32,000 nt of DNA from Kofleriaceae bacterium. Its GTDB lineage: Bacteria > Myxococcota_A > Polyangia > Haliangiales > Haliangiaceae. Position 1 is the stretch's first letter. Each line of letters opens with the position of its first letter. This document shows, piece by piece, positions 3,501 through 24,297 of this stretch. The DNA lies in NCBI GenBank assembly GCA_036501885.1, contig DASXZM010000041.1, positions 34,905-66,904 on the forward strand. Reading direction: 5' to 3'. The translations under genes were made by a program, and so were the position numbers. The notes under the pieces are model-generated. The model saw only the letters and a program-made list of their open reading frames with translations. It did no database searches and was not told the DNA's origin.

Positions 3501-3545
3501 AACTCCGTCGCCGTCTCCAGCCAGACGTTCACCAGCGCCCAATGA
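537..3545 (+). CDS. Penicillin acylase family (S45 Ntn-hydrolase) lipoprotein with an N-terminal Ig-like extension; possible acyl-amide/AHL acylase
   Basis: Strong SD. Lipobox LIVVFGSC. Family motifs AAQGYLQARDRLFPMEFLRH, the autoprocessing/nucleophile site GSNNWVVS, and ANDPHLGLQYPPLF. Residues ~25-105 (ITWSVTGGGSI...TATAGDLTATVMI) look like a bacterial Ig-like module. Confidence 0.88.
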   Translation: MRARSVATACLIVVFGSCGGSNNNSSLTITPIGSGGALAVYGPTDFKANLVNSDAPITWSVTGGGSITTMAGDHTTFVPPAGSAAETLTATAGDLTATVMIESSPMVLTPGSIPGLTAPVIVQYDAQDIPHVNCAQAIDCLAAQGYLQARDRLFPMEFLRHVARSNLSEMIGVAGLSQDIQIRNLFVTRAGHRVEEDLAAAMDPNTRGLLDAFLGGINAYIAQLQATQGDQPLGGEYLQLPYRLTANDLQPWTEVDTLALARLEQFQLSEGIGEESAYGTFVAAYGPTSDKTTAWIRAASPTTEQAHTLAATGFTSSVARKPLAVKPSAPSMGPWGSQLAQVRDSMLALDGRLRPLRTSVGSNNWVVSAMMSATGVSMVANDPHLGLQYPPLFHLVTMTSQNPSDNLNLAGGSFPGIPGALVGRGANVGWGVTVVGYDVTDLYLETLDENPATCPAIAASVPCVKFNGASVTPVVVPETYTVRVGPGSAGLVDSKTLSLGSSAPPPAVLVVPEHGPIISIDIAGGTAVSARWTGQEGNTQDLKGIWGLNTATDVDSAMASLTYFSTGAQNFVLADDQGNIAYDPHALVPVRNFADARTAQFSPTTPPWFPLPGDGTPNVEWGDGSDNCAAGSGVAAACWIPDAQLPQGKNPAKGYFFTANADPTNTGSNGGGVSDGNSPLSFPPYLSFDWDDSSGFRATRIDQMLHDTISANGTVGLADMEAMQSDHYSRPGKAFVDIIDTMTLTDPNALMAKTRLDGWAQAGYDCPSGLIGSDPNESPIDPTQAVVTNSSDCFLFHTFLRTLLSNVFIDDLTPIGAQLDDNVVQAVKAMLYMLTSDPTNSFCNDAGGASHTCAEQVETALAQAYVQLTTSVSSVADDWVWGRVHTLTTVPLLALVTNGYEPGPFARPGGLFTVDVGNPSQETSSGLSFPYASGGNVRHISLMNAATPVVKMQLPGPERDGPDTVIGPDLLGQWVLNEYFDFAFGDQINSVAVSSQTFTSAQ

Positions 3546-3556
3546 GAGGACCATCC

Positions 3557-6500
3557 ATGTCTCGCCTTCTCTTTGTCGCGGCGCCCGCTCTCGCCGTGCT
3601 CGCCATGGCGGCGTGCAAGCCGGACCTGCCCGACACGCCTCCACAGACGTTCGTGATCGCCGAGTTCGATCCGACGACCAGCTCGATCCCGCTGCCGAAC
3701 GATCTCGTGCTGCTCCAGCCGGCGAACTCGCTGTGCACGCCGCCCGCACCGGACGGCTCGCCCGCGTGCGCCGAGGCCGAGCTGATCCAGTCGTTCAAGG
3801 ACGCCAAGGGCTTCCCGAGCGATCAGGCAGTCGACGTCACGGTCGACTTCACCGAGACCATGTTCGACGCGAACGGAAGCGCGACCCAGAGCGCGCCCGA
3901 TCTCGATCTCACCACGTTCACGCCGAGCACGTTCTTCGTCGAGGGCATGAACGCCGGCGGCACCGGCGAGATCGAGGTCGAGCCGATCCAGGCCGGCGAC
4001 TACGTGAAGCTCGCCGATCACGGCGAGCTCACGATCCACAACAAGGGCGACCAGCCGTGGCCGCCCGGCGAGTACGCCGTGCTGATCCGCGGCGGCGCCA
4101 ACGGCGTGATGACGACCGGCAAGCTGCCGGTCGAGCCGTCGCAGATCTTCTACCTGCTCGAGCAGAACGTCGATCTGTCGAACCCGAAGAACAACGGCCT
4201 GCTCAAGGCCGAGCTCGGCTCGCAAGAAGCCGCGAACAGCGAAGGCCTGCAACTCGACGAGGTCGAGGCGCTGTGGAGCCAGTTCGCGTTCCCGACGGCC
4301 GACACGCGCTTCCCGCACGAAGAGCTCGCCGTCCTCACCACGTTCGCGATCCAGCCGACGGTGACGAACGTGTCGATCGATCCGGCGCGCAGCCTCGTGC
4401 CGCTGCCGATCGATCTGTTGCGCGATCCGAACACCGGCAAGCTCAGCGCGCTCGCCGCGTGCACGCTCGCCGGCAGCTCGCTCGACGCGAACGGCAACTG
4501 CCCGAGCGCGGCGGCCGCCGGCTTCGAGGCGCTCGACGGCTTCTCGACGACGGGCGCGATCCTGGGGCCCACCTCGGATCTGATCGACGGCACGTCGATC
4601 AACGGCAGCGACTTGCAGCTGTGGGACCTCAGCGACGTCAACAACCCGGTGCAGGTCGATCCGAATACCCTGATCCTCGAGCCGTGCGAGTTCACGTCGG
4701 GCTGCAACCAGCCGACCGAGCTGTCGCCGGTGATCGCGATCCAGCCCGCCGGCGCGACCGCGAGCGACCCGACGAGCGTGTTCCGCACCAAGCCGCTCAA
4801 GGACGCGACCGACTACGCGGTCGTGATGACGACCGGCATCAAGGACAAGGCCGGCAACCCGATCGGCCCCGGCACCGTCGCGAAGATCCTGCACTTCACG
4901 AATCCGGTCTACGTGAACGGCGCCTCGCAGCTCACCGGCATCGACAACGGGACCGCGCAGTCGGTCGAGGCCATGCGGCTCGAGCTCGCGCCGCTGTTCG
5001 CGAAGCTGTCGGCGGCGGGCACCGACTTCTCGAAGATCGGCATCGCGTACACGTTCCACACGCAGACGATCTTGTCGCAGGCGAACCAGCTCGCGGCGCT
5101 GACGTACGATCCGCCGCTCAACGTCTCCAACAACGAGATCGGCGCCATCACGAACGAGACGGCAACGACGGCGTTCCAACGATTCGGCGTCGACGCGACG
5201 CAAGTGCCGCTGGCCTCGATCGGGAGCGTGTTCGAGTTCGACATCGATACGTTGAACGCGCTCGATCCCCTCACCGGCGCGTTCCTTTCCGATCCGACCA
5301 CCGCGGCGACTGAGCAGATCCATGTGCTGATGGCGCTGCCCGCTCCCACGAACCCCAACATCCCGGCGTGCACCGGTGCGGCCGCCCCGCTCGGCGCGCT
5401 CGGCCTCAAATGCGCGCCGCTGATGATCTTCCGCCATGGCCTCGGCGGAGGTCGCGCCGACATGCTCACGGTCGCCAACACGTTCACCGCGGCCGGCATG
5501 GTCGTGGTGGCGATCGATGCGGCCAAGCACGGCGATCGCTCGTTCTGCACGCCGAACGGGACGCCCGGTCAATGCGCGGCTGACACCGCCACTGCGACGA
5601 CCTGTACGACACAGCTGCCGTCGGGTGCGCAGGGCGACATGAACCCGCCCGGCACGTGTCCGCCCGTACTGCCCAACAATCCGACTGGCTTCACGTACCT
5701 GCCCGTGAGCTCCTCGTGTCTCGCGAACCCGATCGCGTGTGGCTGGGACGGCAATGAAGGCATCCCAGCGGTCGCCGGTAACTACCTCATCACCTCGAAC
5801 TTCTTCCGCACGCGCGACACGCTTCGCCAGGATCTGATCGACGAAGGCGATCTGACGCGCGTCGTCGCATTCGCGCCGCCAGCGAACTACGCGGGAGGAA
5901 ACACGTTGTTCGATACAATGTCGACGACCCTCGGCTACGTCGTCGACCCGACGACGATCTACTTCTCGGGCCAATCGCTCGGCTCGATCTCGGGCGCCGC
6001 GGACGTCGCGACGAACCCGCGCATCACGAAGGCTGGATTCAACGTCGGCGGCGGCACCGTCGTCGACGTGTTCACGAATTCGCCGGCGTTTATCAGCGAG
6101 ACCGACGCGCTGCTCGCGAGCCTCGGCATCACGCCGGGCACGTCGGCGTACTTGCAGTTCCTCGTGGTCGCCAAGACCGTGCTCGACCCGGCCGATCCGA
6201 TCAACTTCGTCGGCCACATCACGCAGGATCCGCTGCCGAGCCTGTTGCCCGGCGTGAATCCGCCGTCGCGCGTGGCGCTGTCGCAAGCCGCGTACTGCGA
6301 TCAGACCGTACCGAACCCGTGGAACTTCATCTACGCGAACAACCTCGGCGCGAACCCGCTGCCGCCGACCGGCGCGCCGGGCACGCTGCCCGCGGTGTTC
6401 GAGCTGTTCGTCGGCCCGAGCTACGCGACCGATCCGAGCTGCGCGGCCTCCGGTGTCGAGCACGGGTTCATCACCGACTGGTCGAACGCCACCATCACCT

Positions 6501-6568
6501 CGAACGCGCAGACCGACATCGCGAACTTCGTCATGCTCGGCACCGTGCCGCCGTCGATCCAGGAATAA
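3557..6568 (+). CDS. Secreted alpha/beta-hydrolase lipoprotein, Pla-1/cef-type extracellular lipase-like
   Basis: ATG 3557 with GAGAGGA upstream, 11 nt after the acylase stop. Lipobox LAMAAC. N-terminal lipase-type motifs IPLPNDLVLL and VPLPIDLL...FEALDGFSTTG. Hydrolase core FRHGLGGGRADML...VVAIDAAKHGDRS and nucleophile elbow GQSLGS. The track ORF 2357..6568 starts far upstream in an Arg-rich overlap with the acylase. Confidence 0.8.
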   Translation: MSRLLFVAAPALAVLAMAACKPDLPDTPPQTFVIAEFDPTTSSIPLPNDLVLLQPANSLCTPPAPDGSPACAEAELIQSFKDAKGFPSDQAVDVTVDFTETMFDANGSATQSAPDLDLTTFTPSTFFVEGMNAGGTGEIEVEPIQAGDYVKLADHGELTIHNKGDQPWPPGEYAVLIRGGANGVMTTGKLPVEPSQIFYLLEQNVDLSNPKNNGLLKAELGSQEAANSEGLQLDEVEALWSQFAFPTADTRFPHEELAVLTTFAIQPTVTNVSIDPARSLVPLPIDLLRDPNTGKLSALAACTLAGSSLDANGNCPSAAAAGFEALDGFSTTGAILGPTSDLIDGTSINGSDLQLWDLSDVNNPVQVDPNTLILEPCEFTSGCNQPTELSPVIAIQPAGATASDPTSVFRTKPLKDATDYAVVMTTGIKDKAGNPIGPGTVAKILHFTNPVYVNGASQLTGIDNGTAQSVEAMRLELAPLFAKLSAAGTDFSKIGIAYTFHTQTILSQANQLAALTYDPPLNVSNNEIGAITNETATTAFQRFGVDATQVPLASIGSVFEFDIDTLNALDPLTGAFLSDPTTAATEQIHVLMALPAPTNPNIPACTGAAAPLGALGLKCAPLMIFRHGLGGGRADMLTVANTFTAAGMVVVAIDAAKHGDRSFCTPNGTPGQCAADTATATTCTTQLPSGAQGDMNPPGTCPPVLPNNPTGFTYLPVSSSCLANPIACGWDGNEGIPAVAGNYLITSNFFRTRDTLRQDLIDEGDLTRVVAFAPPANYAGGNTLFDTMSTTLGYVVDPTTIYFSGQSLGSISGAADVATNPRITKAGFNVGGGTVVDVFTNSPAFISETDALLASLGITPGTSAYLQFLVVAKTVLDPADPINFVGHITQDPLPSLLPGVNPPSRVALSQAAYCDQTVPNPWNFIYANNLGANPLPPTGAPGTLPAVFELFVGPSYATDPSCAASGVEHGFITDWSNATITSNAQTDIANFVMLGTVPPSIQE

Positions 6569-6572
6569 GAAG

Positions 6573-7829
6573 ATGCGCAAGCTTATCCTCGCAACGTCGC
6601 TCCTGGCCCCCGCCGCCGCGTATGCCGGTGGCTACGCCATTCCCGACGAGAACGCGCGCACGCTGGCGCTCTCGCAATCCGATCTCGCCGATCAAACCGG
6701 CGCCGAGGCGATCCTGATCAACCCGGCGGGTATGGCGGGTCAGATCGGCCTCGACGTGTCGGCGAGCCTCGAGTGGCTCGACAACCGCACCGATTATTCG
6801 GATCCGAACCTCGGCACGTCGAGCCTGCTCTCGCACGCCAACACGCCGCCCGCCGGTGCGGTGTCCTTCGGCGACGTGCTGCCGAACGACATGATGTGGG
6901 CCGCGGGCATCGGCTTCCACGTTCCGTACGGCGGCGCGCTGAACTGGCCCGACGGCTGGCAGGGCCAGGAATACGTCCGGACCGTCGACCAAAAGATCTA
7001 TCAGATGACGGCCGGCGCGGCGTTCCAGCCGCTGCCGTACCTCAGCATCGGCGCCGCGTACGTGCGGTACCAGGTCACCGAAGAGCTGCACCAGGCGGTC
7101 AACTTCGTCGATCATTACGGCGATGCCGGCATCGGTATGTCGGGCGGCTCGAGCTCGTTCATGCTCGCGGCGCAGGGCAAGCTGCCGTGGATCCCGCTGC
7201 AGCTCGCGGTGTCGTTCAAGTACAAGGGCTCGACGCAGATCGACGGCAACGCGCACTTCACCGACGTGCCGCCGGCGTTCTCGACCACGCTGCAAGACCA
7301 GAGCGTCACCGAGCAGATCGCGATCCCGTCGGAGATTCACGCCGGCGCGGCCTACGAGGTGATTCCAAATCTCAGCGTGATGTTCACGTTCACGAACGAG
7401 TTCTGGAGCATCTATCACAGCGACACGTTCGTCGGCAGCACGGGCTTTACGGTGAACGTCCCGCGCGACTACAACGACGCGCAGGTCTACCGGCTCGGCG
7501 CCGAGTGGGCGCACGTGCCGTTCTGGTCGCCGCTGACGTTGCGGATCGGCGCGCTGCGCAGCATCTCGCAGCAGCCGACGGCGACGTTGTCGCCCTCGCT
7601 CACCGACGGCGACAGCTGGGCGGTCTCGGTCGGCGCGGGCTACGAGATCATTCCCGACCTGCGGATCGACCTCGGCTACCAGCACGCGTTCTTCGACACC
7701 GTGACCGCGAGCGGCATCGACACGCTGCCCGGCACGTACAAGACGCAGGTCGACTTGCTCTCGCTCGGCGTGAACTGGCGCTTCGATCTGCTCGGCCGCA
7801 CGAGCTCGAACGACCCGACGCAGAAGTGA
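6573..7829 (+). CDS. Outer-membrane transport protein, OMPP1/FadL/TodX family (hydrophobic-compound channel)
   Basis: ATG 6573 lies 4 nt after the lipase stop. Signal peptide MRKLILATSLLAPAAAYA. FadL-like N-terminal hatch GGYAIPDENARTLALSQSDLA...ILINPAGMAG. Alternating beta-strand pattern ending LSLGVNWRF. Confidence 0.82.
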   Translation: MRKLILATSLLAPAAAYAGGYAIPDENARTLALSQSDLADQTGAEAILINPAGMAGQIGLDVSASLEWLDNRTDYSDPNLGTSSLLSHANTPPAGAVSFGDVLPNDMMWAAGIGFHVPYGGALNWPDGWQGQEYVRTVDQKIYQMTAGAAFQPLPYLSIGAAYVRYQVTEELHQAVNFVDHYGDAGIGMSGGSSSFMLAAQGKLPWIPLQLAVSFKYKGSTQIDGNAHFTDVPPAFSTTLQDQSVTEQIAIPSEIHAGAAYEVIPNLSVMFTFTNEFWSIYHSDTFVGSTGFTVNVPRDYNDAQVYRLGAEWAHVPFWSPLTLRIGALRSISQQPTATLSPSLTDGDSWAVSVGAGYEIIPDLRIDLGYQHAFFDTVTASGIDTLPGTYKTQVDLLSLGVNWRFDLLGRTSSNDPTQK

Positions 7830-7877: not shown

Positions 7878-7923
7878 TGGGCAGCTTTCGCGGGTCAACC
7901 GCGCGAGCCTGCGCGTCGTGTGT

Positions 7924-8763
7924 ATGGCGCGCAGCTCGCACACGGCGAGCGCGATGCGCGCGCTGTGGTTCCTAGTCCTCTTCACCGCATGCACGTCGAA
8001 CGTGCCCGGCGATTCGGACGAGTCGGTCGGTTTCGGCGATCAAGTCGACGAGGGCTGGACGAGCGTCGGTTACGGCGTCGAGTACCAGCAACAAAACGCG
8101 GGCAGCGCATTCTTGATCGTCTACGGCGGCTACCAGGCGGAGATCTCGTGGTCGTCGGCGTGGGCGACCGAGCTCGTCGACGTGAAGCTCGGCAGCGCCG
8201 GCATCGGCCGCGTCTACGCGGTGCAGGGCCCGGAAGATCCGGGCTACGACGCGAAGGAGATCGGCAACTCGAAGCTGCGCGCGCAGCTCGCGACGATCGA
8301 CGACGGCGTCTCGCCGATCATCGTCGTCGCGCACTCGAGCGGCGTGTTCGTCGCGCACGAGCTGCTCGATCAGCTCTACAACGCCGGGCAAGACGACGTC
8401 CTCGCGCGCATCTCGTACGCGAACCTCGACGGCGGCGGCACCGGGCTCACCGACGACATCGTCGCCGACCTCGGCCAGATCACGTTCGCGTATGCACACG
8501 ACCCGACGCTCGACGACGGCTACTCCGAGAACCACGACAGCGCGATCGATCTCGGCGAGGAGTACGCACCGAAGGCGACGACATTCGAGGTCACGGTGCC
8601 GAACACCGGCTGCGACGACGGCGCCGGCTGGTGCCTGCACGACGTGCTGGTCACGCATCGCCCGCACGATCCGACGTTCTACGATCTCGCCGACGACTAC
8701 ACCGACTTCGACAATCGCACGCCGACGACCGAGTACCTGGATCAGTTCCTGTCGACGAAGTAA
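7924..8763 (+). CDS. Hypothetical lipoprotein with a possible alpha/beta-hydrolase-like serine elbow
   Basis: Signal peptide plus lipobox (M)ARSSHTASAMRALWFLVLFTAC. High GC3. IIVVAHSSGVFVAHEL resembles an Sm-x-Ser-x-Sm nucleophile elbow. The start is ambiguous (7918 GTG, 7924 ATG or 7954 ATG). Confidence 0.6.
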   Translation: MARSSHTASAMRALWFLVLFTACTSNVPGDSDESVGFGDQVDEGWTSVGYGVEYQQQNAGSAFLIVYGGYQAEISWSSAWATELVDVKLGSAGIGRVYAVQGPEDPGYDAKEIGNSKLRAQLATIDDGVSPIIVVAHSSGVFVAHELLDQLYNAGQDDVLARISYANLDGGGTGLTDDIVADLGQITFAYAHDPTLDDGYSENHDSAIDLGEEYAPKATTFEVTVPNTGCDDGAGWCLHDVLVTHRPHDPTFYDLADDYTDFDNRTPTTEYLDQFLSTK

Positions 8764-10253
8764 TCGTCGGGCTGCGTGGCGTCGGGCCCGTCGGGCACGT
8801 GCAGCGCGCGCGCGAGCAGCGTGCCGATCGCCGCGACCGCGAGGTTGAGCGCGACGGCGAGCAGGCCCGCGTAGATCGAGACGTCGCCGAGCTTGAACGC
8901 GGAGCCGCCGAAGTGCGCGCGGTGCGTGGTCGCGTTCGGCGTGAGGTAGAGCATCGTGAAGCCGGCCGCCATGCCGATGACGAGGCCGCCGATCAGCGCG
9001 GACTTGTGGAACCAGCGTGTGAACAGGCCGAGCCCGACGACGGGAAACGTCTGCAGGATGATCACGCCGCCGATCAGTTGCAGGTCGATCGAGAACTGCG
9101 GCGCGATCAGCACGATGCAGACGAGCGCGCCGAGCTTGACGAACAACGAGGCGAGCTTCGAGACGCGCGCCTGGTCGGCGTGGCTCGCGTCTTTCGAGAT
9201 GTACTCGACGTAGATGTTGCGCGTGAACAAGTTCGCGGCCGCGATCGACATGATCGCGGCGGGCACGAGCGCGCCGATGCCGATCGCCGCGAACGCCACG
9301 CCGGCGAACCAGTGCGGGAACATCTTCTCGAACAGCGCCGGCACGATCGTGTTCGGATCGTGATCGACCGGCGAGATCTTCGCGGCGATCGCCATGTAGC
9401 CGAGCAACGCGATCAGGCCGAGCAGCAGCGAATACGCCGGCAGCGTGGCCATGTTGCGCTTGATGACGTCGCGATTCTTGCTCGCGAGCACCGCGGTCGC
9501 CGAGTGCGGATACAAGAACAGCGCGAACGAGCTGCCGAGCGCGAGCGAGATGAACGGCAGCTGCTGGCCGTCGCCGAGCGTCAGCTTGCCGTGAAACTTA
9601 TCGGCGGCGGCGTCGAAGATGTTCCCCCAGCCGCCGAGCTCGTACGGAATGTAGACGACCGCCGCGATGATCACGATGTAGATCAGCCCGTCCTTGACGA
9701 ACGCGATCAGCGCCGGCGCGCGCAAGCCGGATTGATACGTGTACGCGGCGAGGATCGCGAACGCGAGGATCAGCGGCAGATCGCCGGCGAGTCCCATCTG
9801 CTTGAGCACCGCCTCGATGCCGACGAGCTGCAGCGCGATGTATGGCATCGTCGCGACGATCCCGGTGATCGCGACGAGCAGCGCGAGCGTCGGCGAACCG
9901 AACCGTGCACGCACGAAGTCGGCGGGCGTCACGAACCCGTGCTTGTGCGAGACCGACCACAGCCGGATCAGCACGAGGAACACGAGCGGATACGTCGCGA
10001 CGGTGTACGGCATCGCGAAGAAGCCGTACGCGCCCGCCGCGTAGAGCAGCGCCGGCACCGCGACGAACGTGTACGCGGTGTAGAGATCGCCGCCGATCAA
10101 GAACCACGTGACCCACGCGCCGAAGCTGCGGCCGCCGAGGCCCCACTCGTCGAGGTGATCCATCGTCGCCGGCCGCCGCCACTTCGCAGCGACAAAGCCG
10201 ACGCCCGCCACGACGACGAACAGCGTGGTGAAGACGACGAGCTCGACCGTCAT
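8742..10253 (-). CDS. Sodium:solute symporter family permease, MctP-like monocarboxylate transporter type
   Basis: Start MTVELVVFTTLFVVVAGVGFVAAKWRR. SSF-like DEWGLGGRSFGAWVTWFLIGGDLYTAYTF. About 13 hydrophobic segments. Its ATG overlaps the DUF3311 stop (ATGA, 10250-10253). Confidence 0.88.
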   Translation of the reverse strand: MTVELVVFTTLFVVVAGVGFVAAKWRRPATMDHLDEWGLGGRSFGAWVTWFLIGGDLYTAYTFVAVPALLYAAGAYGFFAMPYTVATYPLVFLVLIRLWSVSHKHGFVTPADFVRARFGSPTLALLVAITGIVATMPYIALQLVGIEAVLKQMGLAGDLPLILAFAILAAYTYQSGLRAPALIAFVKDGLIYIVIIAAVVYIPYELGGWGNIFDAAADKFHGKLTLGDGQQLPFISLALGSSFALFLYPHSATAVLASKNRDVIKRNMATLPAYSLLLGLIALLGYMAIAAKISPVDHDPNTIVPALFEKMFPHWFAGVAFAAIGIGALVPAAIMSIAAANLFTRNIYVEYISKDASHADQARVSKLASLFVKLGALVCIVLIAPQFSIDLQLIGGVIILQTFPVVGLGLFTRWFHKSALIGGLVIGMAAGFTMLYLTPNATTHRAHFGGSAFKLGDVSIYAGLLAVALNLAVAAIGTLLARALHVPDGPDATQPDDYFVDRN

Positions 10254-10441
10254 CGCTTGCGGGTCTTTCGATACACGATGCCGGCGCACAGCGCGCCGAG
10301 CCCGACGAACGACAGCTGCAGCCAGTAGAAGCGCGGGAACCCGAACAAGCGCGGCTCGGCGCCGTTATAGATGAACGGCAGCATCGGCACGACGATCGGC
10401 ACGAGCAGTAGCCAGTTCCACGGGCTGCGGTCGCGATTCAT
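10250..10441 (-). CDS. DUF3311-like small membrane protein (usual partner of MctP-type symporters)
   Basis: 63 aa: MNRDRSPWNWLLLVPIVVPMLPFIYNGAEPRLFGFPRFYWLQLSFVGLGALCAGIVYRKTRKR. Two TM segments. Sits directly upstream of the symporter, with ATGA overlaps at both ends. Confidence 0.75.
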   Translation of the reverse strand: MNRDRSPWNWLLLVPIVVPMLPFIYNGAEPRLFGFPRFYWLQLSFVGLGALCAGIVYRKTRKR

Positions 10442-10968
10442 GACAGCGCCTTCGCGGTCTCGGCCCACGCGATGTCGCCGAGCTCGGCGATCGGGTGCAC
10501 GCGCGCGCAGCTCGGGCATGCCCGCGGCGACGCGTTGAACGCATGCACCGCGGCCAGATACGCGGCCTGCACGATGACGCCCGGCGCGATGTCGATCGAA
10601 TGCACGAGCGCGCCGCACGCGCAGAACCACGCGACGGCCTCGCGCACGCCGGGCTCGGCCTTGAGCCGCACTTGCACGTTCTCGCCGTCGGGGAACAAGC
10701 GGCTCGGCATGCACGCCGGGACGTACACCGCGTCACCGGGCACGAGCGACATGGCCGCCGCGCCGGCGAGCTCGATGCGACCGGTGCCCGACATCTGGAT
10801 GATCACCTGATCGGCCTCGCTCACCAGGAAGAACGGCTGCGCGCAGCGGTTGCGCGACAGATGCGGCATCGGATCGGTGCCGGGTTGGCCGACGGGAAAA
10901 TCGTCGTACGAGCCCCACGCGTCGCGCGCGTCCTTGAACACGTTGAGCGTCTTCTTACGTTCGATCAC
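10438..10968 (-). CDS. 3-hydroxyanthranilate 3,4-dioxygenase-like cupin ('cupin B', 176 aa); catalytic metal ligands apparently not conserved
   Basis: The GTG start at 10968 overlaps the upstream stop (GTGA). The C-terminal half AWFCACGALVHSIDI...RACPSCARVHP aligns closely with my remembered Ralstonia 3-HAO sequence (WYCDACGHLVHRVEV...RRCPHCGQVHP). The length matches the 3-HAO family. Confidence 0.78.
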   Translation of the reverse strand: MIERKKTLNVFKDARDAWGSYDDFPVGQPGTDPMPHLSRNRCAQPFFLVSEADQVIIQMSGTGRIELAGAAAMSLVPGDAVYVPACMPSRLFPDGENVQVRLKAEPGVREAVAWFCACGALVHSIDIAPGVIVQAAYLAAVHAFNASPRACPSCARVHPIAELGDIAWAETAKALS

Positions 10969-11618
10969 TGCGACGCCTTCTCGATGTCGGCGCGCGCGCG
11001 GTTCGCGAGGTCCACGTATTGCGCGTAGCGCCGCCAGCCCATCAACTCGCTCGGGAATCGCGGCTGCTCGGCATCGCAGCTCGCGCAGCGTCGAGCGTCT
11101 GCGTTGTACGCGTCGGCGGCATCCGCGTAGAAGCGAATGTTCGCGAGCTCGGGGTAGTGCGCGTGCGCCGGCGCCTGCCAGACGTCGCGATCCATGCGGA
11201 ACACGACCTCGTTGCATTTCGGGCAGCGCAGGATGAACGCCTCGTTCTGCGGCCCGCGCTCCTTCATGCGGATGATGATGAGCGAGATCTGATAGTGCTT
11301 GCCCTCGCTGCCGGCCGGCTGGCGGATGAACGTCGTCACGCCGTGCGTGCCCTGCTGCAGGTACAGCTGGCCGGTCGCGATGAGCCCGCCCTCACTCGCC
11401 ATGCACAGGATCACTTCGGGTACGTCGTTGTAGTGATAGAAGTGCACGCGCGGCGTGTCGGGCAACGTGAGCGACAGCGCCGCCGTCGGCACGATGTCGC
11501 CGGGTCCGACGTACGGGAACAGCGGAATCTGCTCGAGCATCCCCTGGTGGCCCGTCATGTGCTCGAACACGTTGACCTTGATCGGCCGCTTGGTCGGCTC
11601 GCGACCGAACCAGCTCAT
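10965..11618 (-). CDS. Divergent 3-HAO-like cupin ('cupin A', 217 aa) retaining an H-x5-E metal motif
   Basis: ATG 11618 overlaps the upstream stop (ATGA). FYHYNDVPEVILCMAS aligns with DYHDDPLEEFFYQLRG of 3-HAO. LIIIRMKERGPQNEAFILRCPKCNEVVFR and ARRCASCDAEQPRFP match the family's C-terminal Cys-pair region. Confidence 0.72.
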   Translation of the reverse strand: MSWFGREPTKRPIKVNVFEHMTGHQGMLEQIPLFPYVGPGDIVPTAALSLTLPDTPRVHFYHYNDVPEVILCMASEGGLIATGQLYLQQGTHGVTTFIRQPAGSEGKHYQISLIIIRMKERGPQNEAFILRCPKCNEVVFRMDRDVWQAPAHAHYPELANIRFYADAADAYNADARRCASCDAEQPRFPSELMGWRRYAQYVDLANRARADIEKASQ

Positions 11619-11887
11619 CCGCCGACCATCTTCACGAGATCGGCGTAACTCGCCGCGAACTGCTGCTCCTTGATCTCGTCGAATGGAAAGCCGATTCGCT
11701 CGAGCTCGCGCGCGACCGCCTGTTCGGAGTCGGCGTCGTAGATGTTGATGATGAGCCCGTCGGCCATGTTCGCGTAGCACTGCACGAACCGGGCAAACTT
11801 GCTCTCCAGCACGGCTGGAACGCTGTGTTGAAAATCTTCCGGGCTCACGCCCGGCGCGTGGTGCACGACGATGTAACGAGGCACCAC
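11615..11887 (-). CDS. Small DUF4242 (SCO4226-like, ferredoxin-fold, metal-binding) protein
   Basis: 90 aa from GTG 11887 (or 11884): VVPRYIVVHHAPGVSPEDFQ...GLIINIYDADSEQAVARELERIGFPFDEIKE. This resembles the 'MPKYMV.H...G..yC..eA.s.eav....e..G.p.deI.e' pattern I recall for DUF4242. The rest of track ORF 11615..12718 is Arg-rich antisense to the kinase. Confidence 0.5.
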   Translation of the reverse strand: MVPRYIVVHHAPGVSPEDFQHSVPAVLESKFARFVQCYANMADGLIINIYDADSEQAVARELERIGFPFDEIKEQQFAASYADLVKMVGG

Positions 11888-11923: not shown

Positions 11924-13999
11924 GTGCAAGACCGATCGAACGACCGGTTGCTGGTGCTGTCGGAGGCGTTTCGCGCGTTCGCCGAAGGCACGACGGAACC
12001 CGTCGGCTTGCTCGCCACGGTCGCGCGCAAGCTCACCGAGTTGATCGGCGACGCGTGCGTGATCTCGCTCGCCGACGCCGACGGCATCTGGCTCGAGCCG
12101 AGCGCCGCGTTCGCCGCCGACGACAGCCATGCGGCGATGCTGCGTGCCGCGCTCGCGAATCGCGACGGTCGCAGCGGTACCGGCAACGCGGTGCACGCCG
12201 TGCGGACCGGCGAGTCGGTGTTGATCGCGTCGATCGATCCGGCCGAGCTCGCGACGCGCGCCGAGCCCGCGTTCGCCGATGCGGTGCGCACGCTCGGCGT
12301 CCGCAGCTACCTGTCGGTACCGCTGCAGGTGCGCGACCGCCGCATCGGCGTCGCGGCGCTGCTGCGTTATCTGCCGGCAAGCGCGCCGTTCGACGAGCTC
12401 GATCGAACGCTCGCCGCGACGATCGCCGATCACGCCGCACTCGCGATCGCGAACGCGCAGCTCTTGGATTCGGTGCAGCGCGAGCTCGCGGAGCGCGAGA
12501 AGGCCGAGGACCGCGCGAAGGCATTCGTCGCGCTCGTCGAGGCGAGCACCGACATGATCGGCATGGCCGACTTCGACGGCCGCATCTTGTTCTTGAACGC
12601 GGCCGGGCGCGCGCTGATCGGCATCGAGCCCGACTACGACGTGCGCGCCGACACGCTCGGCGACTATCACGCGCCTGCGGAGCTGAGCACCGTGCTCGAG
12701 CGCCGCCGCCAAGGTCATTGGAGCGGCGAGACCGAGTTACTCCACCAAGACAACGGCGAGCGCATCGTCACGAAGGCGAGTGGCTTCCTCGTGCGCGACG
12801 TCGACGGCAAGCCGCTGTGCTACGGCACCGTGCAGCACGATCTGCGCACGATGAAGCGCCTGGAGGCCGAGCTCCGGCAGGCTCAGAAGATGGAGGCACT
12901 CGGGCGCCTCGCCGGCGGCATCGCGCACGACTTCAACAACCTGTTGACGGTGATCTTGAGCTACGCGGCGATGCTCGGGCGCGCGTTGCCCAAAGACAGC
13001 CGCGCCGCCGACGACGTTCACCAGATCGATCGCGCCGCACAGCGCGCCGCCGAGCTGACGCGCCAGCTGCTCGCGTTCAGCCGGCGCCAGGTGCTCGAGC
13101 CCAAGGCGCTCGATCTCGGCGAAGCGCTGCAGGCGATGGCCACGATGATCCGCCGGCTGATCGGCGAGGACATCGAGCTGCGCATCCTCACCGCGGGCAG
13201 CACCGGCGCCGTGATGGTCGACGCGGGTCAGCTCGAGCAGGTCGTGATCAACCTCGTCGTCAATGCGCGCGATGCGATGCAAGGCGGCGGCGTGCTCACG
13301 ATCGAGACGTCGCGCGTGCAGCTCGTGCGCGGCGAGCATGGCCTCGCGCCCGGCTGGTACCACAGCGTCGCGATCACCGATACCGGCACCGGCATCGACG
13401 AGCCGACGCGCGCGCACGTGTTCGATCCGTTCTTCACGACGAAGGAGCACGGCAAGGGCACCGGCCTTGGCCTATCGACCGTGATGGGCATCGTCGAGCA
13501 GAGCGGCGGCTACGTCACCGTCGACAGCGAGCTCGGCCGCGGCTCGACGTTCCACGTCTTTCTGCCCGTCACCGAGCGCGTGCCGGCCGTGCCGCTCGCC
13601 GTGGCGCGCACCGCGACGCCGATCCGCGGCACGCAGCGCATCCTCGTCGTCGAGGACGAAGCGCCGGTGCGCATGCTCATCCGCGAGGTCCTGAGCCAGG
13701 CCGGCTACGACGTGATCGACGCCGTCGACGGCGCGCATGCGCTCGACGTGGCCGCCGCGACCGAAGGCGAGATCGATCTGCTCTTGACCGACGTCATCAT
13801 GCCCAAGCTCAGCGGTCGCGAGCTCGCGCGGCGGTTCGCGCAGCTGCGCCCGACCTCGCGCGTGCTGTACATGTCCGGCTACGCCGATGACAAGCTCGGT
13901 CATCATGGCTTGCTCGATCCCGACGTCGCGCTGATCCAGAAGCCGCTCACGCCCGAGATGCTGCTCCGCCGCGTCCGCGCGCTCCTCGGCGACGGTTAA
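11924..13999 (+). CDS. Hybrid sensor histidine kinase (GAF-PAS-HisKA-HATPase_c-receiver)
   Basis: GAF-like region LLATVARKLTELIGDACVISL...YLSVPLQVRDRRIGVAAL. PAS STDMIGMADFDGRILFLNAAGRALIG. H-box LAGGIAHDFNNLL. N-box VVNARDAM. G-boxes DTGTGID and GKGTGLGLS. Receiver ILVVEDE...LLLTDVIMPKLSG. The start is uncertain: GTG 11924, TTG ~11953, or the track's 11825, which would overlap the divergent gene. Confidence 0.88.
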   Translation: MQDRSNDRLLVLSEAFRAFAEGTTEPVGLLATVARKLTELIGDACVISLADADGIWLEPSAAFAADDSHAAMLRAALANRDGRSGTGNAVHAVRTGESVLIASIDPAELATRAEPAFADAVRTLGVRSYLSVPLQVRDRRIGVAALLRYLPASAPFDELDRTLAATIADHAALAIANAQLLDSVQRELAEREKAEDRAKAFVALVEASTDMIGMADFDGRILFLNAAGRALIGIEPDYDVRADTLGDYHAPAELSTVLERRRQGHWSGETELLHQDNGERIVTKASGFLVRDVDGKPLCYGTVQHDLRTMKRLEAELRQAQKMEALGRLAGGIAHDFNNLLTVILSYAAMLGRALPKDSRAADDVHQIDRAAQRAAELTRQLLAFSRRQVLEPKALDLGEALQAMATMIRRLIGEDIELRILTAGSTGAVMVDAGQLEQVVINLVVNARDAMQGGGVLTIETSRVQLVRGEHGLAPGWYHSVAITDTGTGIDEPTRAHVFDPFFTTKEHGKGTGLGLSTVMGIVEQSGGYVTVDSELGRGSTFHVFLPVTERVPAVPLAVARTATPIRGTQRILVVEDEAPVRMLIREVLSQAGYDVIDAVDGAHALDVAAATEGEIDLLLTDVIMPKLSGRELARRFAQLRPTSRVLYMSGYADDKLGHHGLLDPDVALIQKPLTPEMLLRRVRALLGDG

Positions 14000-14208: not shown

Positions 14209-15129
14209 CTAGCGATCTTGCGGTTCCATGTTGGTGTGTTGCGCGATCTGCAGGCTCTTGCGCGCGCCGTTGAGCACGACGAGCGCGAGCAAGATCGCGG
14301 CGCCCGCGTAGAACTTGACGCTCAGCTTCTCGGTTTCGGGATAGAGCAGCGCGCCGAGCACCAACGCGTACACGGTCTCCAAGTTCACGCACACCGCGAT
14401 CGTGAACGGCGACAGCGTGCGCAGCACGATCAGCGCCCACACTTGCGGCACGACGGTGCAGCAAAACGCGAGCACGCCGAGCCACCACAGGTCGGCATGC
14501 GACAGCTGCGACGGCGCGACGTACTCGCCGGGCACGATCACGAACGCGATCGTCACGACCGCGAGCGCCGCGAGCATCTCGTGAAACAAGAGGCGCATCG
14601 GCGGCTCGTGCGGCGCGAGCTTGCCGTTGAGCACGCCGAAGATCGCGCTGAACAGCGCCGAGCCGAAGCCGAGCGCGACACCGAACGGATCGGGATGACC
14701 TTGCAGCTGCACGAGCAGCGCGACGCCGACCACGACGACTCCGCCGATCACGACCTCACCGACGTCGACGCGGCGTCGATACACGATCGGCTCGATCAGC
14801 GCGGTGAAGAACGCGAGCGTCGACAGCGTCAACACCGCGATCGCGATGCCGGCCTGCTTGATCGAGCCGTAGAAGCACAGCCAATGAATGCCGATGAACG
14901 CACCGACCACGGCCGCGCGGCCGAACGACTGCAGCGACGCGCGCAACGGCTCGCGACGTGCCGTCAGGATCACGGCGAGCATCACGGCGACGAACAGGAT
15001 GCGATACCAGACGAGCGGGATCGCGTGGATCGAGATCTGGTGGCCGAGGATCGCGGTGAAGCCCCACAGCAGCACGGTCACGTGAAGCAGCGCGTGCGCG
15101 GCGGGGCGCGAGAGCTGCTTCGATGTCAC
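14209..15129 (-). CDS. DMT superfamily (EamA-like) permease
   Basis: 306 aa with about 10 hydrophobic helices and an EamA-type N-terminus HALLHVTVLLWGFTAILG. The GTG start lies 10 nt after the upstream stop. Confidence 0.82.
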   Translation of the reverse strand: MTSKQLSRPAAHALLHVTVLLWGFTAILGHQISIHAIPLVWYRILFVAVMLAVILTARREPLRASLQSFGRAAVVGAFIGIHWLCFYGSIKQAGIAIAVLTLSTLAFFTALIEPIVYRRRVDVGEVVIGGVVVVGVALLVQLQGHPDPFGVALGFGSALFSAIFGVLNGKLAPHEPPMRLLFHEMLAALAVVTIAFVIVPGEYVAPSQLSHADLWWLGVLAFCCTVVPQVWALIVLRTLSPFTIAVCVNLETVYALVLGALLYPETEKLSVKFYAGAAILLALVVLNGARKSLQIAQHTNMEPQDR

Positions 15130-15783: not shown

Positions 15784-18357
15784 TCAGCCAGCTGCGGAGA
15801 GCGCCCACAACGGGAAGATCCGCAGATACGCGTCGTAGTGGATCGCGCACGTGTGGTTGAACACGCCGGCGATGTGCTCGGCCGGCCACGTGCCGTCGGC
15901 CTGTTGGCGGCGCAGCAAGAACTCGACGCCGCGGCGCACTTCACGGGACTCGGCGCGATCGGCGCGGCACAGCGCCAACAGCGCCCACGACGTCATCACC
16001 GCCTGGCCGGTCTCGGCGTGAATGTAGCGGCGCGCGCGACACGACTCGACGGTCTCGCCCCAGCCGCCGTCCTGCTGTTGATGCGCGATCAAGAACTCGC
16101 ACGCGCGATCGATCGCGCGTTTCGCGCGCGCGTCCTCGGATGCGGCGAGTCCGTTGACCGCGAACCACGTGCCGTACGTGAAGCACACGCCCCACGCGCC
16201 TTCCCACGAGCCGTCGGGCCGCTGCACGTCGAGCAAGTACTGCGCGCCGCGCGCGATCGCGGCCGTGATCGCCGTGCGCAGCACCAGATCGGCGCCCGGC
16301 AGGTAGTTGCGCAGCGCCGTCATGCACGCCGACGTGCACTCGGTGTACGAGCGATCGATCATGATCTCGCCGAACACTTCGGACGGGTTGAAGCGCTCGA
16401 GCCATTTCGGCCCGCGCGTCTTCTCGTACGTGGCCCAGCCGCCGTCGGCGTTCTGCCACGACAGCATGCGCGCGACCGCATCGGCGCGGCGCTCGGATGT
16501 GATCGGCTCGGCGAGCCCGTGCGCGTCGAGCGCGAGCGTCGCCTTGAGTCCTTCGGCGGTGCAATCGGTGATCGGCCAGCCGTGCGGGCGCGTCGAGAAC
16601 GGCCACGCGCCGACGCTGTCGTGCCGGTAGTAGCGCGCGCCGTCGGCCGGTTGCGCGATGATCTGCGCGCCTTCGATGAAGCGCGCGGCGTTCGCGAGCG
16701 TGGCGTGGCTCGCGCGGCCGCTCGCGTGGAGTGCCTGCACCGCGAACGCGGTGTCCCACAGCTCCGACGAGTTGTAGCCCTGCATCTTCACGCCGTCGGG
16801 CGCGCGCCACAGATAATCCGGCATGCGCGCGACGTGCGCTTGCACTTCCGCGCCGCCCGGCTTCGCGTGATGCCAGACCAGCAGGTCGAACAGCTTGTTG
16901 ACCGGACCGATGCAGATGTAGCTCGTCGCGCGATCTTCGAACGCGATGTGATCGAGCAGCATCGCGAGCGCGCGCTCGCGCAGCTTGGCGATCGACGCGC
17001 GCTCGTACACGCCGAGCACGGTGTGGATCGTGGTCAGCCACGCGTCGTGCGGATGATAGAGATCGTCGGCGGCGACGCGGGCACGCGCGCTCGCCCAATC
17101 GATCTGACCGTACGGCTCGTCGTAGATCTCGCCGCGGATCTCGTCGAGCAGCGGGCCGTTGCCGAGCACGGCACGCGCGCCGTACAGATAGCTCATCGGC
17201 AGGTAGACCATGCGCGCGTGGCACCACAGCCGCGACGGATGGAACGGCACCGCCTCCGGCAACAGCCAGAGCTCCGGCGGAACCGGCGCGACGCCGTCGT
17301 AGTCGTAGAGCCCGAGCACCGCGAGAAAAAACTTTCCCCACGACGCCGACGCGAGCGCACCGCCGCGCGGCAGGAACCACGCGCGCGCGTTTGCGAGACG
17401 CTCGTCGCTCTTGGGGAGCCCCAAGAGGCGCAGCGCGACGTAATTCAGAACCGACGTGAAGACGTGCGAGTCGCCCTCGACGTCGAGGCCCCAGCCGCCG
17501 TCGGGGTTCTGGTAGCGCGTGAGGTAGCCGACCATCCCGTCGCGGGTCTCGCGATCGAGCGGAATGCCGACGATGTGGCACGTGCCGACGTACATCGGCA
17601 GCAAGAACAGCGGCCCGCCGTAATCGCCGTGCCACGAGCCGGTCGGAGATTGTGTGGCGGCGAGCACGTCGCATGCGAGATCGATCGCGCGCTCGCGCGA
17701 CGGCAGCGGCGCATCGGCGACGAGCTCGGCCTCTTCCGGCGCCGCGGGTGGCAAGCCGCGACACAGCGCTGCAAAGCCGGCGCGCACCGCGCGATCGTTG
17801 CCCGCGACCAGCCCGGCGAGCCGATTCGCGACCGCATTGGGCGAGATCGCACCGACGAGCGGGCGCAGGCAGCTCTTGCGCAGCGCGGGCTCGCTCGCCG
17901 GGATCGCGAGCACGAAGTCGAGCGCGTGCTTCGCGTCGCGATGCAGTGCCGCGCGGTCGAGCTCGCCCGACAGCACGTTCGCGAACGCATCGGCGCGCGC
18001 CGACAGCTTCGCATGTACGGCCGCGACCGCCGCCGAGTGTCGCGCGAACAGGTGCACGACGAGCCGCACGAACGACTTCGCGAAGCCATCGCCTCGCGCG
18101 GCGGCCGCCACGCAGTCGGCGATCCCGCGCCGTGCGGCGGAGGTTTGCGTCGACAGCCGGCGGAGCAACGCGGCGGTCGGCTCGTCGAGCTTCGCGACAC
18201 GCGCGCGCCAGTCGGCGGGCAACGCGGCGAGCTCGTGCAAGTCGAGGTGTTTGCCGAGCTCGGCGGCGAGCTCGAGCGGCTCGGCGAGCTCTCGCGGCAG
18301 CTCGTCGGTCGCGATCGTGATCGTCGCAGCCACCGGGCGCTGCGCGTGTGCGATCAC
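15784..18357 (-). CDS. osc: Oxidosqualene cyclase, cycloartenol-synthase-type residues, with a long N-terminal extension
   Basis: Near-continuous similarity to eukaryotic lanosterol/cycloartenol synthases: GSWHGDYGGPLFLLPMYV, WGKFFLAVLGLYDYDG, LWCHARMVYLPMSYLYG, MQGYNSSELWDTAFAVQAL, GAWPFSTRPHGWPITDCTAEGLKA (DCTAE, not the DxDDTA of hopene cyclases), NPSEVFGEIMIDRSYTECTS, GSWEGAWGVCFTYGTWF and IAGVFNHTCAIHYDAYLRIFPLWAL. The GTG at 18357 overlaps the SQMO stop (GTGA). Confidence 0.9.
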   Translation of the reverse strand: MIAHAQRPVAATITIATDELPRELAEPLELAAELGKHLDLHELAALPADWRARVAKLDEPTAALLRRLSTQTSAARRGIADCVAAAARGDGFAKSFVRLVVHLFARHSAAVAAVHAKLSARADAFANVLSGELDRAALHRDAKHALDFVLAIPASEPALRKSCLRPLVGAISPNAVANRLAGLVAGNDRAVRAGFAALCRGLPPAAPEEAELVADAPLPSRERAIDLACDVLAATQSPTGSWHGDYGGPLFLLPMYVGTCHIVGIPLDRETRDGMVGYLTRYQNPDGGWGLDVEGDSHVFTSVLNYVALRLLGLPKSDERLANARAWFLPRGGALASASWGKFFLAVLGLYDYDGVAPVPPELWLLPEAVPFHPSRLWCHARMVYLPMSYLYGARAVLGNGPLLDEIRGEIYDEPYGQIDWASARARVAADDLYHPHDAWLTTIHTVLGVYERASIAKLRERALAMLLDHIAFEDRATSYICIGPVNKLFDLLVWHHAKPGGAEVQAHVARMPDYLWRAPDGVKMQGYNSSELWDTAFAVQALHASGRASHATLANAARFIEGAQIIAQPADGARYYRHDSVGAWPFSTRPHGWPITDCTAEGLKATLALDAHGLAEPITSERRADAVARMLSWQNADGGWATYEKTRGPKWLERFNPSEVFGEIMIDRSYTECTSACMTALRNYLPGADLVLRTAITAAIARGAQYLLDVQRPDGSWEGAWGVCFTYGTWFAVNGLAASEDARAKRAIDRACEFLIAHQQQDGGWGETVESCRARRYIHAETGQAVMTSWALLALCRADRAESREVRRGVEFLLRRQQADGTWPAEHIAGVFNHTCAIHYDAYLRIFPLWALSAAG

Positions 18358-24100: not shown

Positions 24101-24297
24101 CGCGCGCCGCCGCGCAGCTGCTCGCCGACACGCTCGCGCATCACGTCGCGGACGACTTCTTCCCCGCCGCGCCGCAAAAAGGCGCGTGCGAATATTGCGA
24201 CTACCGGCCGATCTGCGGGCCGTACGAGGAGCTGCGCGTCACGAAGAAGGACCGCGCGCGCCTCGTGCAGCTGACGAAGCTGCGGGAGACCCGATGA
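21118..24297 (+). CDS. addB: AddB-type PD-(D/E)XK nuclease subunit with an Fe-S cluster cysteine motif
   Basis: C-terminal nuclease GSIDLVEL...ATDHKTGK. Cys ligands LAACPLRF plus CEYCDYRPIC. No Walker A seen anywhere in the protein. The stop overlaps the addA start (ATGA 24294-24297). Confidence 0.82.
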   Translation: MIARVVASARAELRLREVAAHLASLPPGDEVIVIGGTASAAAEAVRAVAKARGSAFGMHRFTLGRLAAELAKLPLVEAGLVPIGALPAEALCARVIDRLRRDGELGRFAAVADQPGLPRALARTLGELRLANATVDVLDCELALAMTAFGDELARGGLADRAAVLALAARVTDHALLGHHLVMIDVPVRAAAEHALIAAIGATSRSFLATVPDGDERTIERLRTAIVASEARPVMIERLDVPAGGSLERVQRGVFRATREAAVLDDSLAIFSAPGESRECVEIARRVVRAAEGGMPFDRMAILLRAPAQYRVHLEEALARADVPAYFEHGTVLPDPAGRAFVALLACAAEGLSARRFAEYLSLGEVPGDVPAAAAPRGDRWVPPDEELLPRALIGEPIAETEVDTDEPRAPWRWERLIVDAAVIGGRDRWTRRLDGLAARLELARHELADDARTRMLADLAHLRAFALPLLDELAALPASARWGEWLDALSSLATRALRRPERVLAVLAALSPMADVGPVELDEVQLVLVPRLTELVAPPPASRYGRVLVAPIEAARGLAFDLVFVPGLAERLFPQKLVEDPLLLDALRERTGLALDTRSDRLADERLALKLAIGAASRRVVLSYPRIDLDQARPRVPSFYGLEVLAAAEGTLPGFDELGRRADATGATRIGWPAPARPIDAIDDAEHDLALLADAFKTQMTGAGRYLLGANAHLARTLRARGRRWLSPWRANDGFIATSPGGRAVIAANAPSARSFSPTALEQLAACPLRFAYRTIARLEARRVPEPIEAIGALERGSMIHEMQFELLGELRDAAELPVRPANLSAARTRLDDVIDRVAARYRDELAPAIERVWADGIASIRADLREWLRRLADNTAWTPHRFELAFGLAEEAGRDPASTDEPAVLDIGLALRGSIDLVELSADGALRATDHKTGKARVLPGSLIAGGASLQPVLYALVLERLFPGAPIAGGRLAYCTTRGDFRDVDVPLDADARAAAQLLADTLAHHVADDFFPAAPQKGACEYCDYRPICGPYEELRVTKKDRARLVQLTKLRETR

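Follow-up and report, generated by a model that had tools for sequence, protein, structure and literature searches.

Bacterial 3-hydroxyanthranilate dioxygenase (3-HAO; NbaC/HAAO), structurally represented by the enzyme of Cupriavidus metallidurans (1YFU), is a single-gene homodimer that combines a cupin barrel with a C-terminal rubredoxin-like CxxC...CxxC site. Here we analyze a 32,000-nucleotide stretch from the genome of a Kofleriaceae bacterium (contig DASXZM010000041.1; 69% G+C), hereafter the window, in which two overlapping genes, designated A and B, encode cupins that share these features and for which bacterial 3-HAO is the best structural and profile match. In contrast to the homodimeric enzyme, A and B are two diverged genes or, in some genomes, a single fused chain. 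The spacing to the third histidine is shorter in A than in bacterial 3-HAO, and A has an N-terminus longer by ~35 residues and an additional C-terminal helix. As detailed below, the comparative evidence favors, with somewhat better than even confidence, a heteromer in which A would be the catalytic subunit and B a degenerate one.

Animal 3-HAO (human 2QNK and 5TK5, bovine 3FE5) is monomeric and comprises a catalytic cupin and a second module without a metal site, which takes the place of the partner subunit. The 1YFU sequence aligns to residues ~9-155 of the 286-residue animal chains, and the animal entries were also among the Foldseek matches. The catalytic domain of animal 3-HAO is N-terminal and always fused to the second module, whereas the genes analyzed here are usually split, with A preceding B, and their fused chains present the B-A order. 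Furthermore, both modules keep a four-cysteine (Cys4) site in the A/B family. The duplication that produced A and B appears to be a bacterial event, independent of the animal layout. A similar logic is found in 2-aminophenol 1,6-dioxygenase (AmnAB) and related LigAB-type enzymes, in which adjacent genes encode a catalytic subunit and a paralogous subunit lacking the iron ligands, and which act on o-aminophenol-type substrates; these enzymes, however, adopt the LigB-superfamily fold instead of the cupin fold and have no Cys4 site.

In bicupins, the general rule is that just a single domain of the pair is used (PMC2684688). The B-A fusions are bicupins, as are gentisate and salicylate dioxygenases and KduI, but the A/B family is mostly split in two genes. 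A further parallel is provided by the XylT-type ferredoxins involved in the reactivation of extradiol dioxygenases, where an enzyme of the ring-cleavage type likewise has a small ferredoxin linked to it genetically. The XylT ferredoxin belongs to the plant type; the ferredoxins associated with the A/B family are instead Rieske or thioredoxin-like proteins, for which a comparable role may be proposed, and the window has no ferredoxin gene. Searches of the literature for 3-HAO-like cupins made of two subunits or otherwise heteromeric, for enzymes of the PnpCD type and for 3-HAO bicupins returned no description of the A/B family, and a paper on riboflavin catabolism that they brought up had no bearing on it.

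Paralogy of A and B and their relationship to 3-HAO

The two genes and their junction occupy the following positions:

10965 to 11618, minus strand: gene A, 3-HAO-like cupin of 217 residues with an ATG start, putative catalytic subunit (open reading frame and hhalign to 1YFU)
10438 to 10968, minus strand: gene B, 3-HAO-like cupin without metal triad, 176 residues with a GTG start, putative non-catalytic partner (translation, AlphaFold2 and Foldseek, hhalign)
10965 to 10968, minus strand: GTGA overlap between A and B (read from the sequence)

Both open reading frames and their overlap, reported in a preliminary description of the window, were confirmed in the sequence. The GTG start codon of B covers the last base of the final A codon and the TG of the A stop codon (TGA), an arrangement suggestive of translational coupling.

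The hhalign comparison of the A and B family alignments yielded a probability of 96.9 (E 1.3e-10), and of 98.4 (E 1.1e-14, 168 columns) when deeper alignments were used. The hidden Markov model (HMM) of the B family also matched A proteins directly, down to E 6e-10. These comparisons indicate that A and B are true paralogues. Reciprocal HMM scoring separated 79 A-type domains (at least 49 bits) from 20 B-type domains (at least 106 bits) without any mixing, which points to a single ancient duplication giving rise to two clades.

The B profile matched 1YFU in the PDB with an E-value of 2e-6, and hhalign aligned 1YFU to B (E 3.9e-12) and to A (probability 96.1, E 2.9e-9); the 1YFU sequence in these alignments was checked to be identical to the PDB chain. 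The link between A and 3-HAO was seen only by profile-profile comparison. In Foldseek searches with the B model, the top 21 matches were all 3-HAO structures (E 1.5e-7, TM-score 0.57); the model, which contains the cupin barrel, resembles many other cupins as well. The Pfam Cupin_2 match of B is weak (E 0.019), and A was assigned to the cupins because it is homologous to B and to 3-HAO. None of the Pfam and NCBIfam families reached its cut-off for A, and no 3-HAO-specific Pfam match was obtained for either protein. Curated 3-HAO models scored A at 12 bits and B at 23.2 bits (NF009763, cut-off 220 bits), and B at 14.8 bits (TIGR03037, cut-off 145.95 bits). Given that these scores fall far under the curated cut-offs, A and B are best regarded as relatives of 3-HAO and not as members of the 3-HAO family.

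Metal and cysteine sites

The conservation of A was assessed on 79 near-full-length and diverse A domains, down to ~25% identity. These domains were taken from a library-wide HMM search among 1.84 billion representative proteins, which yielded only 164 representatives of the A family. The close homologues of A (~374) are all annotated as hypothetical. The relevant positions in A are:

11435 to 11433, minus strand: codon of His62, candidate metal ligand
11417 to 11415, minus strand: codon of Glu68, candidate metal ligand
11345 to 11343, minus strand: codon of His92, candidate metal ligand
11076 to 11225, minus strand: rubredoxin-like or zinc-ribbon Cys4 site of A (C132, C135, C178 and C181), aligned with 3-HAO C125/C128/C162/C165

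Six residues (His62, Asn64, Glu68, Cys132, Cys135 and Cys178) are conserved in 100% of the A domains, and four more (His92, Arg117, Glu126 and Cys181) in 99% of them. In the hhalign alignment against 1YFU, His62 and Glu68 align exactly with the 3-HAO ligands His51 and Glu57, and His92 falls in the motif-2 region. A can therefore be credited with a credible 2-His-1-carboxylate (His62, Glu68, His92) mononuclear metal site, accompanied by a Cys4 site. A match of A to an Ada zinc finger, obtained in single-sequence and profile searches against the PDB, was judged spurious.

In gene B, whose conservation was assessed on 158 split-type B sequences, the corresponding positions are:

10827 to 10825, minus strand: codon of Leu48, degenerate ligand position
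10809 to 10807, minus strand: codon of Gln54, degenerate ligand position
10704 to 10702, minus strand: codon of Ser89, degenerate ligand position
10507 to 10623, minus strand: Cys4 site of B, formed by a C-x-C knuckle (C116/C118) and a CxxC knuckle (C151/C154), conserved in 157-158 of 158 sequences and likewise aligned with 3-HAO C125/C128/C162/C165

Profile alignments place either Leu48 or Ala52 of B in the 3-HAO His51 column, Gln54 or a gap in the Glu57 column and Ser89 in the His95 column. These replacements are themselves well conserved, with Leu at position 48 in 146, Gln at position 54 in 148 and Ser at position 89 in 147 of the 158 sequences, the latter position being Thr in nine others. 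No column between residues 44 and 100 holds a conserved histidine in this set, and the metal triad is missing in 158/158 split-type B sequences, sporadic single substitutions aside. The first cysteine knuckle has the CxC form in 118 sequences and the CxxC form in 32, with CxxC present in Binatia, Actinomycetota and the fusions. CxC is hence the majority state of the clade to which the B protein of the window belongs, and not a peculiarity of the window.

Most of what the preliminary description had proposed for these sites was borne out. Its FYHYNDVPE segment corresponds to A residues 60-68 and retains the His-x5-Glu motif, its placement of VPACMPSRL (B residues 83-91) opposite the 3-HAO segment PPHVRHSP was reproduced, with Ser89 at the His95 position, and its C-terminal cysteine pairs are present in both proteins, with the CxC of WFCACG lying within B residues 114-119. 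Its assignment of SRNRCAQPFF (B residues 38-47) to the His51/Glu57 region did not hold, the profile alignments placing those columns 7-9 residues further on. The absence of metal ligands in B is unaffected by this correction, with all three missing under either register, and the more rigorous alignment placed no His/Glu/His set in B.

In spite of having lost the triad, B evolves under purifying selection. The ratio of non-synonymous to synonymous substitution rates (dN/dS), roughly estimated by the Nei-Gojobori method from close relatives, is ~0.30 for B, versus 0.22 for A and 0.16 for the neighboring gene S, and on this basis B is not a decaying pseudogene. Across the 158 sequences, 32 positions of B are invariant, including the polar residues His36, Ser38, Asn40, Asp53, Asp79, Tyr82, Arg90, Arg101 and Glu110. 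Conservation is highest over the first 46 residues, with 88% mean identity versus 65-70% elsewhere. The AlphaFold model of B (predicted local distance difference test, pLDDT, 75; predicted template-modelling score, pTM, 0.74) is well resolved over residues 37-175 (pLDDT 75-96) and leaves residues 1-36 unstructured (pLDDT <50). An N-terminus that is at once the most conserved segment and unstructured in the model fits an arm that folds on a partner. The closest genome record to the window is a Kofleriaceae metagenome-assembled genome (MAG; Myxococcota), whose A protein is 99% identical. In this nearest relative (L001, 6651-7235), 19 residues rich in Pro, Ala and Gly are inserted in the intermotif loop of B, the rest of the protein being near-identical.

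Linkage of the two genes and natural fusions

B was found directly downstream of A in 37/37 loci identified with A as seed, taking one genome per species. These loci span Kofleriaceae, Polyangiaceae, the cultured Minicystis rosea, Pseudonocardiaceae, a Mycobacterium MAG and seven Binatia, and therefore cover the Myxococcota, the Actinomycetota and the Binatia; leaving two frameshifted calls aside, the gap between the genes ranges from -4 to +25 nucleotides. In metagenomes searched with B as seed, A lies directly upstream of B in 62 of the 65 loci with enough upstream sequence, and the same order is observed in 5/5 further distant split loci. None of the three remaining metagenome loci is a clear case of independent occurrence. 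L115 was discarded because it is A itself, cross-matched by B, and L112 because it is a weak 33% match on a strand without an open reading frame of at least 100 residues. In L107 (2322-2627), an L,D-transpeptidase-like open reading frame takes the place of A ahead of a B-like gene (57% identity), and the contig ends inside B; this is the sole possible exception to the A-then-B order, and A may lie downstream or be fused. The pairwise distances of A and B are also correlated (r = 0.90).

Natural fusions of the two proteins, in which B precedes A, form at least seven clusters at 50% identity (P0262, P0265, P0274, P0306, P0309, P0332 and P0339), the Rosetta-stone pattern expected of interacting subunits. 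The histidine equivalent to His95 of 3-HAO is kept in the B domain (as PHR or PHQ) of six of the seven fusions and of the distant split B of L046, and is absent in the clade of the window, while the His51/Glu57 pair is absent from every B domain examined. Two of the fusions have no cysteines at all in the B domain.

This pattern bears on two alternatives to a heteromer with a single catalytic subunit. A and B could instead be independent homo-oligomers that are co-transcribed for a shared pathway, as would be consistent with the single-gene homodimers formed by bacterial and yeast 3-HAO (1YFU, 1ZVF) and with the fact that the products of neighboring operon genes often do not interact. The fusions, the adjacency of the pair in essentially all loci of the different phyla, where the stop codon of one gene overlaps or nearly abuts the start codon of the other, and the lack of a recognizable catalytic site in B all argue against this possibility, which we consider highly improbable.

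The second alternative takes the association for granted and assigns B a functional site of its own, as a metal-independent or differently liganded enzyme or as a ligand-binding domain, so that A-B would be a two-activity complex in which B either acts on an unstable product of A, as an isomerase, decarboxylase or cyclase, or presents the substrate. Metal-independent cupin enzymes such as RmlC do exist (PMC2684688), and both the invariant residues of B, with their polar set, and the His95-equivalent histidine retained by the more basal B domains could be understood in this manner. However, no complete alternative ligand set is conserved in B, its dN/dS is higher than that of A, the intermotif loop accepts a 19-residue insertion and the cysteines of the B domain are gone in two fusions. 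We regard a second functional site as unlikely, and favor a degenerate, non-catalytic B subunit.

Genomic context

The genes surrounding A and B in the window are:

11615 to 11884, minus strand: gene S, SCO4226-like protein (DUF4242) of 89 residues with a GTG start (Pfam PF14026, 34.3 bits against a cut-off of 28.5)
10250 to 10441, minus strand: DUF3311 small membrane protein of 63 residues (Pfam PF11755, E 1.1e-10)
8742 to 10253, minus strand: MctP-type monocarboxylate permease of the sodium:solute symporter family, ~503 residues, last gene of the operon (NCBIfam NF046076)
11924 to 13999, plus strand: GAF-PAS-HisKA-HATPase-REC hybrid histidine kinase, divergent from S (Pfam domains)

S, A, B, DUF3311 and MctP (8742-11884, minus strand) are chained by four-nucleotide start/stop overlaps (ATGA, GTGA, ATGA and ATGA, respectively), with the S stop codon overlapping the A start and the DUF3311 ATG overlapping the B stop; the overlap of MctP with the DUF3311 stop codon holds only if MctP starts at Met13 of its longest open reading frame. 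The permease scores above its curated cut-off (707.5 bits versus 625). S, by contrast, lies below the NCBIfam SCO4226 equivalog cut-off (19.3 bits versus 125). Nickel binding by SCO4226 is of low affinity and takes place on the protein surface (PMC4186839), which precludes any inference on metal binding by S; the SCO4226 nickel ligands were for the same reason dropped as a clue to the metal used.

S is located directly upstream of A in 30 of the 37 genome loci, accompanies A in 41 metagenome loci, and adjoins A-B in the distant lineages L044 and L046. In one of these two lineages, represented by an 8.1-Mb genome record (CP134053), S heads the divergent operon with CoA-transferase subunits A and B. 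The core module is S-A-B, and S looks like a third component of the system. The DUF3311-MctP pair follows B only in the two nearest relatives (L001 and L002).

Orthologues of the hybrid kinase (58-96% identity) occupy the same position in 11 Kofleriaceae/Haliangiales loci, nine of them full-length and two partial (L008 and L019), identifying it as a conserved neighbor and a possible regulator of the operon. The longest open reading frame of this kinase (from 11825) would overlap S by 60 nucleotides, and a start at GTG 11924 leaves just 39 nucleotides for two divergent promoters. Elsewhere in the Myxococcota, the neighbors of the module are mostly signalling proteins. In Polyangia and in Minicystis, the gene after B on its strand encodes a PAS hybrid kinase or a Ser/Thr kinase-AAA16 protein, at gaps of 9-12 nucleotides in L016 and L030, and an aldehyde dehydrogenase follows B in three Kofleriaceae loci. 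Otherwise, the genes lying upstream of S show no conservation in this phylum.

These observations could be taken to mean that the myxococcal S-A-B is a sensory or signal-processing module and not a catabolic enzyme, in which a cupin pair dependent on a metal, O2 or a small molecule would produce, remove or detect a signal meant for the neighboring kinase. Such a role would account for the syntenic kinase divergent from S, for the kinases trailing B on the same strand and for the otherwise unconserved region upstream of S. Kinases are nonetheless very abundant in these genomes, and those with PAS domains commonly regulate catabolic operons. In addition, the operon of the window ends in a permease, and the catabolic contexts of the Actinomycetota, the Binatia and the Alphaproteobacteria-type fusion loci show no link to kinases. 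We deem a signalling function very unlikely, and turn to the distant loci, which are more telling as to the role of the A-B pair.

The B-A fusions are found next to TRAP transporters, NMT1-type binding proteins, MarR regulators and a Rieske oxygenase alpha subunit, and next to proteins scoring above curated cut-offs for 4-hydroxybenzoate 3-monooxygenase (PobA), an MhpA-like hydroxylase and salicylyl-CoA 5-hydroxylase; Amidohydro_2, RidA and LigAB genes are also nearby. Among distant split pairs, L042 is accompanied by FAD hydroxylases and hydrolases, L043 by an ABM monooxygenase, a binding protein and a 2Fe-2S ferredoxin, and L046 by IclR, S and CoA-transferase subunits A and B. Ferredoxins are associated with the pair in several forms: P0332/L039 (2831-4537) and the partial P0328 carry a Rieske domain fused C-terminally to B-A, L038 (10001-11637) has a Rieske ferredoxin gene of its own that overlaps the B-A gene at its end, and the ferredoxin that comes after B in L043 (8053-8433) is thioredoxin-like. 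Taken together, the distant contexts point to a common theme, in which carboxylated compounds, most of them aromatic, are taken up and broken down oxidatively. The contexts were also examined for a specific substrate, but they agree on carboxylate uptake and aromatic hydroxylases and not on one compound, and none is named here.

The gene order in the Binatia is luciferase-like monooxygenase, A, B and methylmalonate-semialdehyde-type dehydrogenase. In one of these loci (L031, 4886-8701), the monooxygenase stands in place of S and overlaps the start of A, and B overlaps the dehydrogenase, which is CoA-acylating and is followed by a gamma-glutamyltranspeptidase and a LarA-like protein, a set that is not typically aromatic.

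Several other genes of the window were annotated. A FadL/TodX-type outer-membrane channel (6453-7829, plus strand) and a lipoprotein without family match (7918-8763, plus strand) are convergent to the end of the operon, and their synteny is limited to the two closest relatives. Beyond the kinase lies an EamA transporter (14209-15129, minus strand), which is also syntenic in several relatives. The window further encodes a squalene-hopene-cyclase-like protein of 1111 residues (15784-19119, minus strand) with an N-terminal extension of ~470 residues that has no family match. The remaining genes encode a penicillin-amidase family protein (537-3545, plus strand), an AddB-like PD-(D/E)XK nuclease (21118-24297, plus strand) and a GH5 cellulase (28171-29502, minus strand).

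Discussion

The explanation that best accommodates these results is that A and B together make up an obligate hetero-oligomer, a cupin metalloenzyme with a distant relationship to 3-HAO, as an alpha-beta pair that would mimic the 3-HAO homodimer. B stems from an ancient duplication and has since lost the metal triad, while keeping the barrel, a Cys4 site of its own and a strongly conserved N-terminal arm. A would carry out oxygen-dependent chemistry at a metal that is most likely Fe(II), and the leading candidate reaction is an extradiol-type cleavage of the ring of an aromatic carboxylate bearing a hydroxy or amino substituent. The role of B would be that of a non-catalytic partner that adds stability, supplies part of the pocket for the substrate, or offers a surface for docking or electron relay. 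S, A, B, DUF3311 and MctP may be translated as one unit, with MctP importing the carboxylate substrate or handling the product, and S might be a third accessory found across the lineage, where it perhaps handles the metal or the product. We consider a heteromer that pairs a catalytic subunit with a degenerate one to be the probable arrangement; extradiol ring cleavage is the leading candidate for its chemistry, but as a specific assignment it falls short of probable.

Several observations weigh against this interpretation. The case for a physical association of A and B is drawn from sequence and gene linkage, and B has more invariant polar residues than a plain scaffold would seem to need. Regarding the active site of A, His92 aligns in hhalign with His92 of 3-HAO, three residues before the ligand His95, and the AlphaFold2 model of A, built on an alignment of 45 sequences, is too poor to place the site (pLDDT 57, with the barrel unmodelled), so that the geometry proposed for it rests on the alignment; Foldseek searches with this model ranked 3-HAO first, with a non-significant score. 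The 3-HAO residues Arg47, Arg99 and Glu110, which we take to be substrate-binding or second-sphere residues from their roles in 1YFU, correspond in hhalign to Pro56, Glu105 and Ile116 in A and to a gap, Phe92 and Lys103 in B, although the alignment of loops is uncertain. This lack of conservation suggests that the substrate is not 3-hydroxyanthranilate and that the chemistry may differ. The gene contexts are also heterogeneous, with a luciferase-like monooxygenase and a dehydrogenase in the Binatia and mostly kinases in the Myxococcota. Lastly, ferredoxins are fused or adjacent to the pair in some lineages, and classical extradiol cleavage is electron-independent except for reactivation.

In a more elaborate reading, S-A-B and its fused relatives would constitute a hitherto unrecognized class of multi-component cupin oxygenases. 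B would be a working part of it, either as a second site for a ligand or product or as a subunit for docking and electron relay, the two Cys4 centres and the lineage-specific Rieske or 2Fe-2S ferredoxins would feed electrons to the metal of A, and the myxococcal module would be wired to dedicated kinases. If true, the family would perform electron-dependent chemistry and not classical extradiol cleavage. We judge this scheme distinctly unlikely, and retain the heteromer with a degenerate B subunit as the working interpretation.

In these terms, the results outline a putative split or fused heteromeric family of 3-HAO-like cupins with an SCO4226-like companion. Such a family is not categorically new, but it constitutes an enzyme family without a Pfam or NCBIfam model or a characterized member. 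Its proteins are annotated as hypothetical, save for some automatic JGI labels on B (3-HAO, mannose-6-phosphate isomerase-like), and occur in soil Myxococcota, Actinomycetota and Binatia and, from two named Rieske-fusion records, in Alphaproteobacteria. It would offer a clean instance of subunit specialization, with the metal site retained by one copy and lost in steps by the other, the third histidine surviving in some fusions, in a layout that parallels, apparently independently, the two-domain organization of animal 3-HAO. The family should interest enzymologists and also serve as an example of how pseudoenzymes evolve. An always-linked and sometimes fused pair lends itself to tests of what a degenerate cupin contributes, be it stability, part of the pocket or electron relay, and Minicystis rosea DSM 24000 provides a cultured host with the cluster. 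For the bacteria that carry it, the family may supply a missing ring-cleavage step in the catabolism of aromatic acids.

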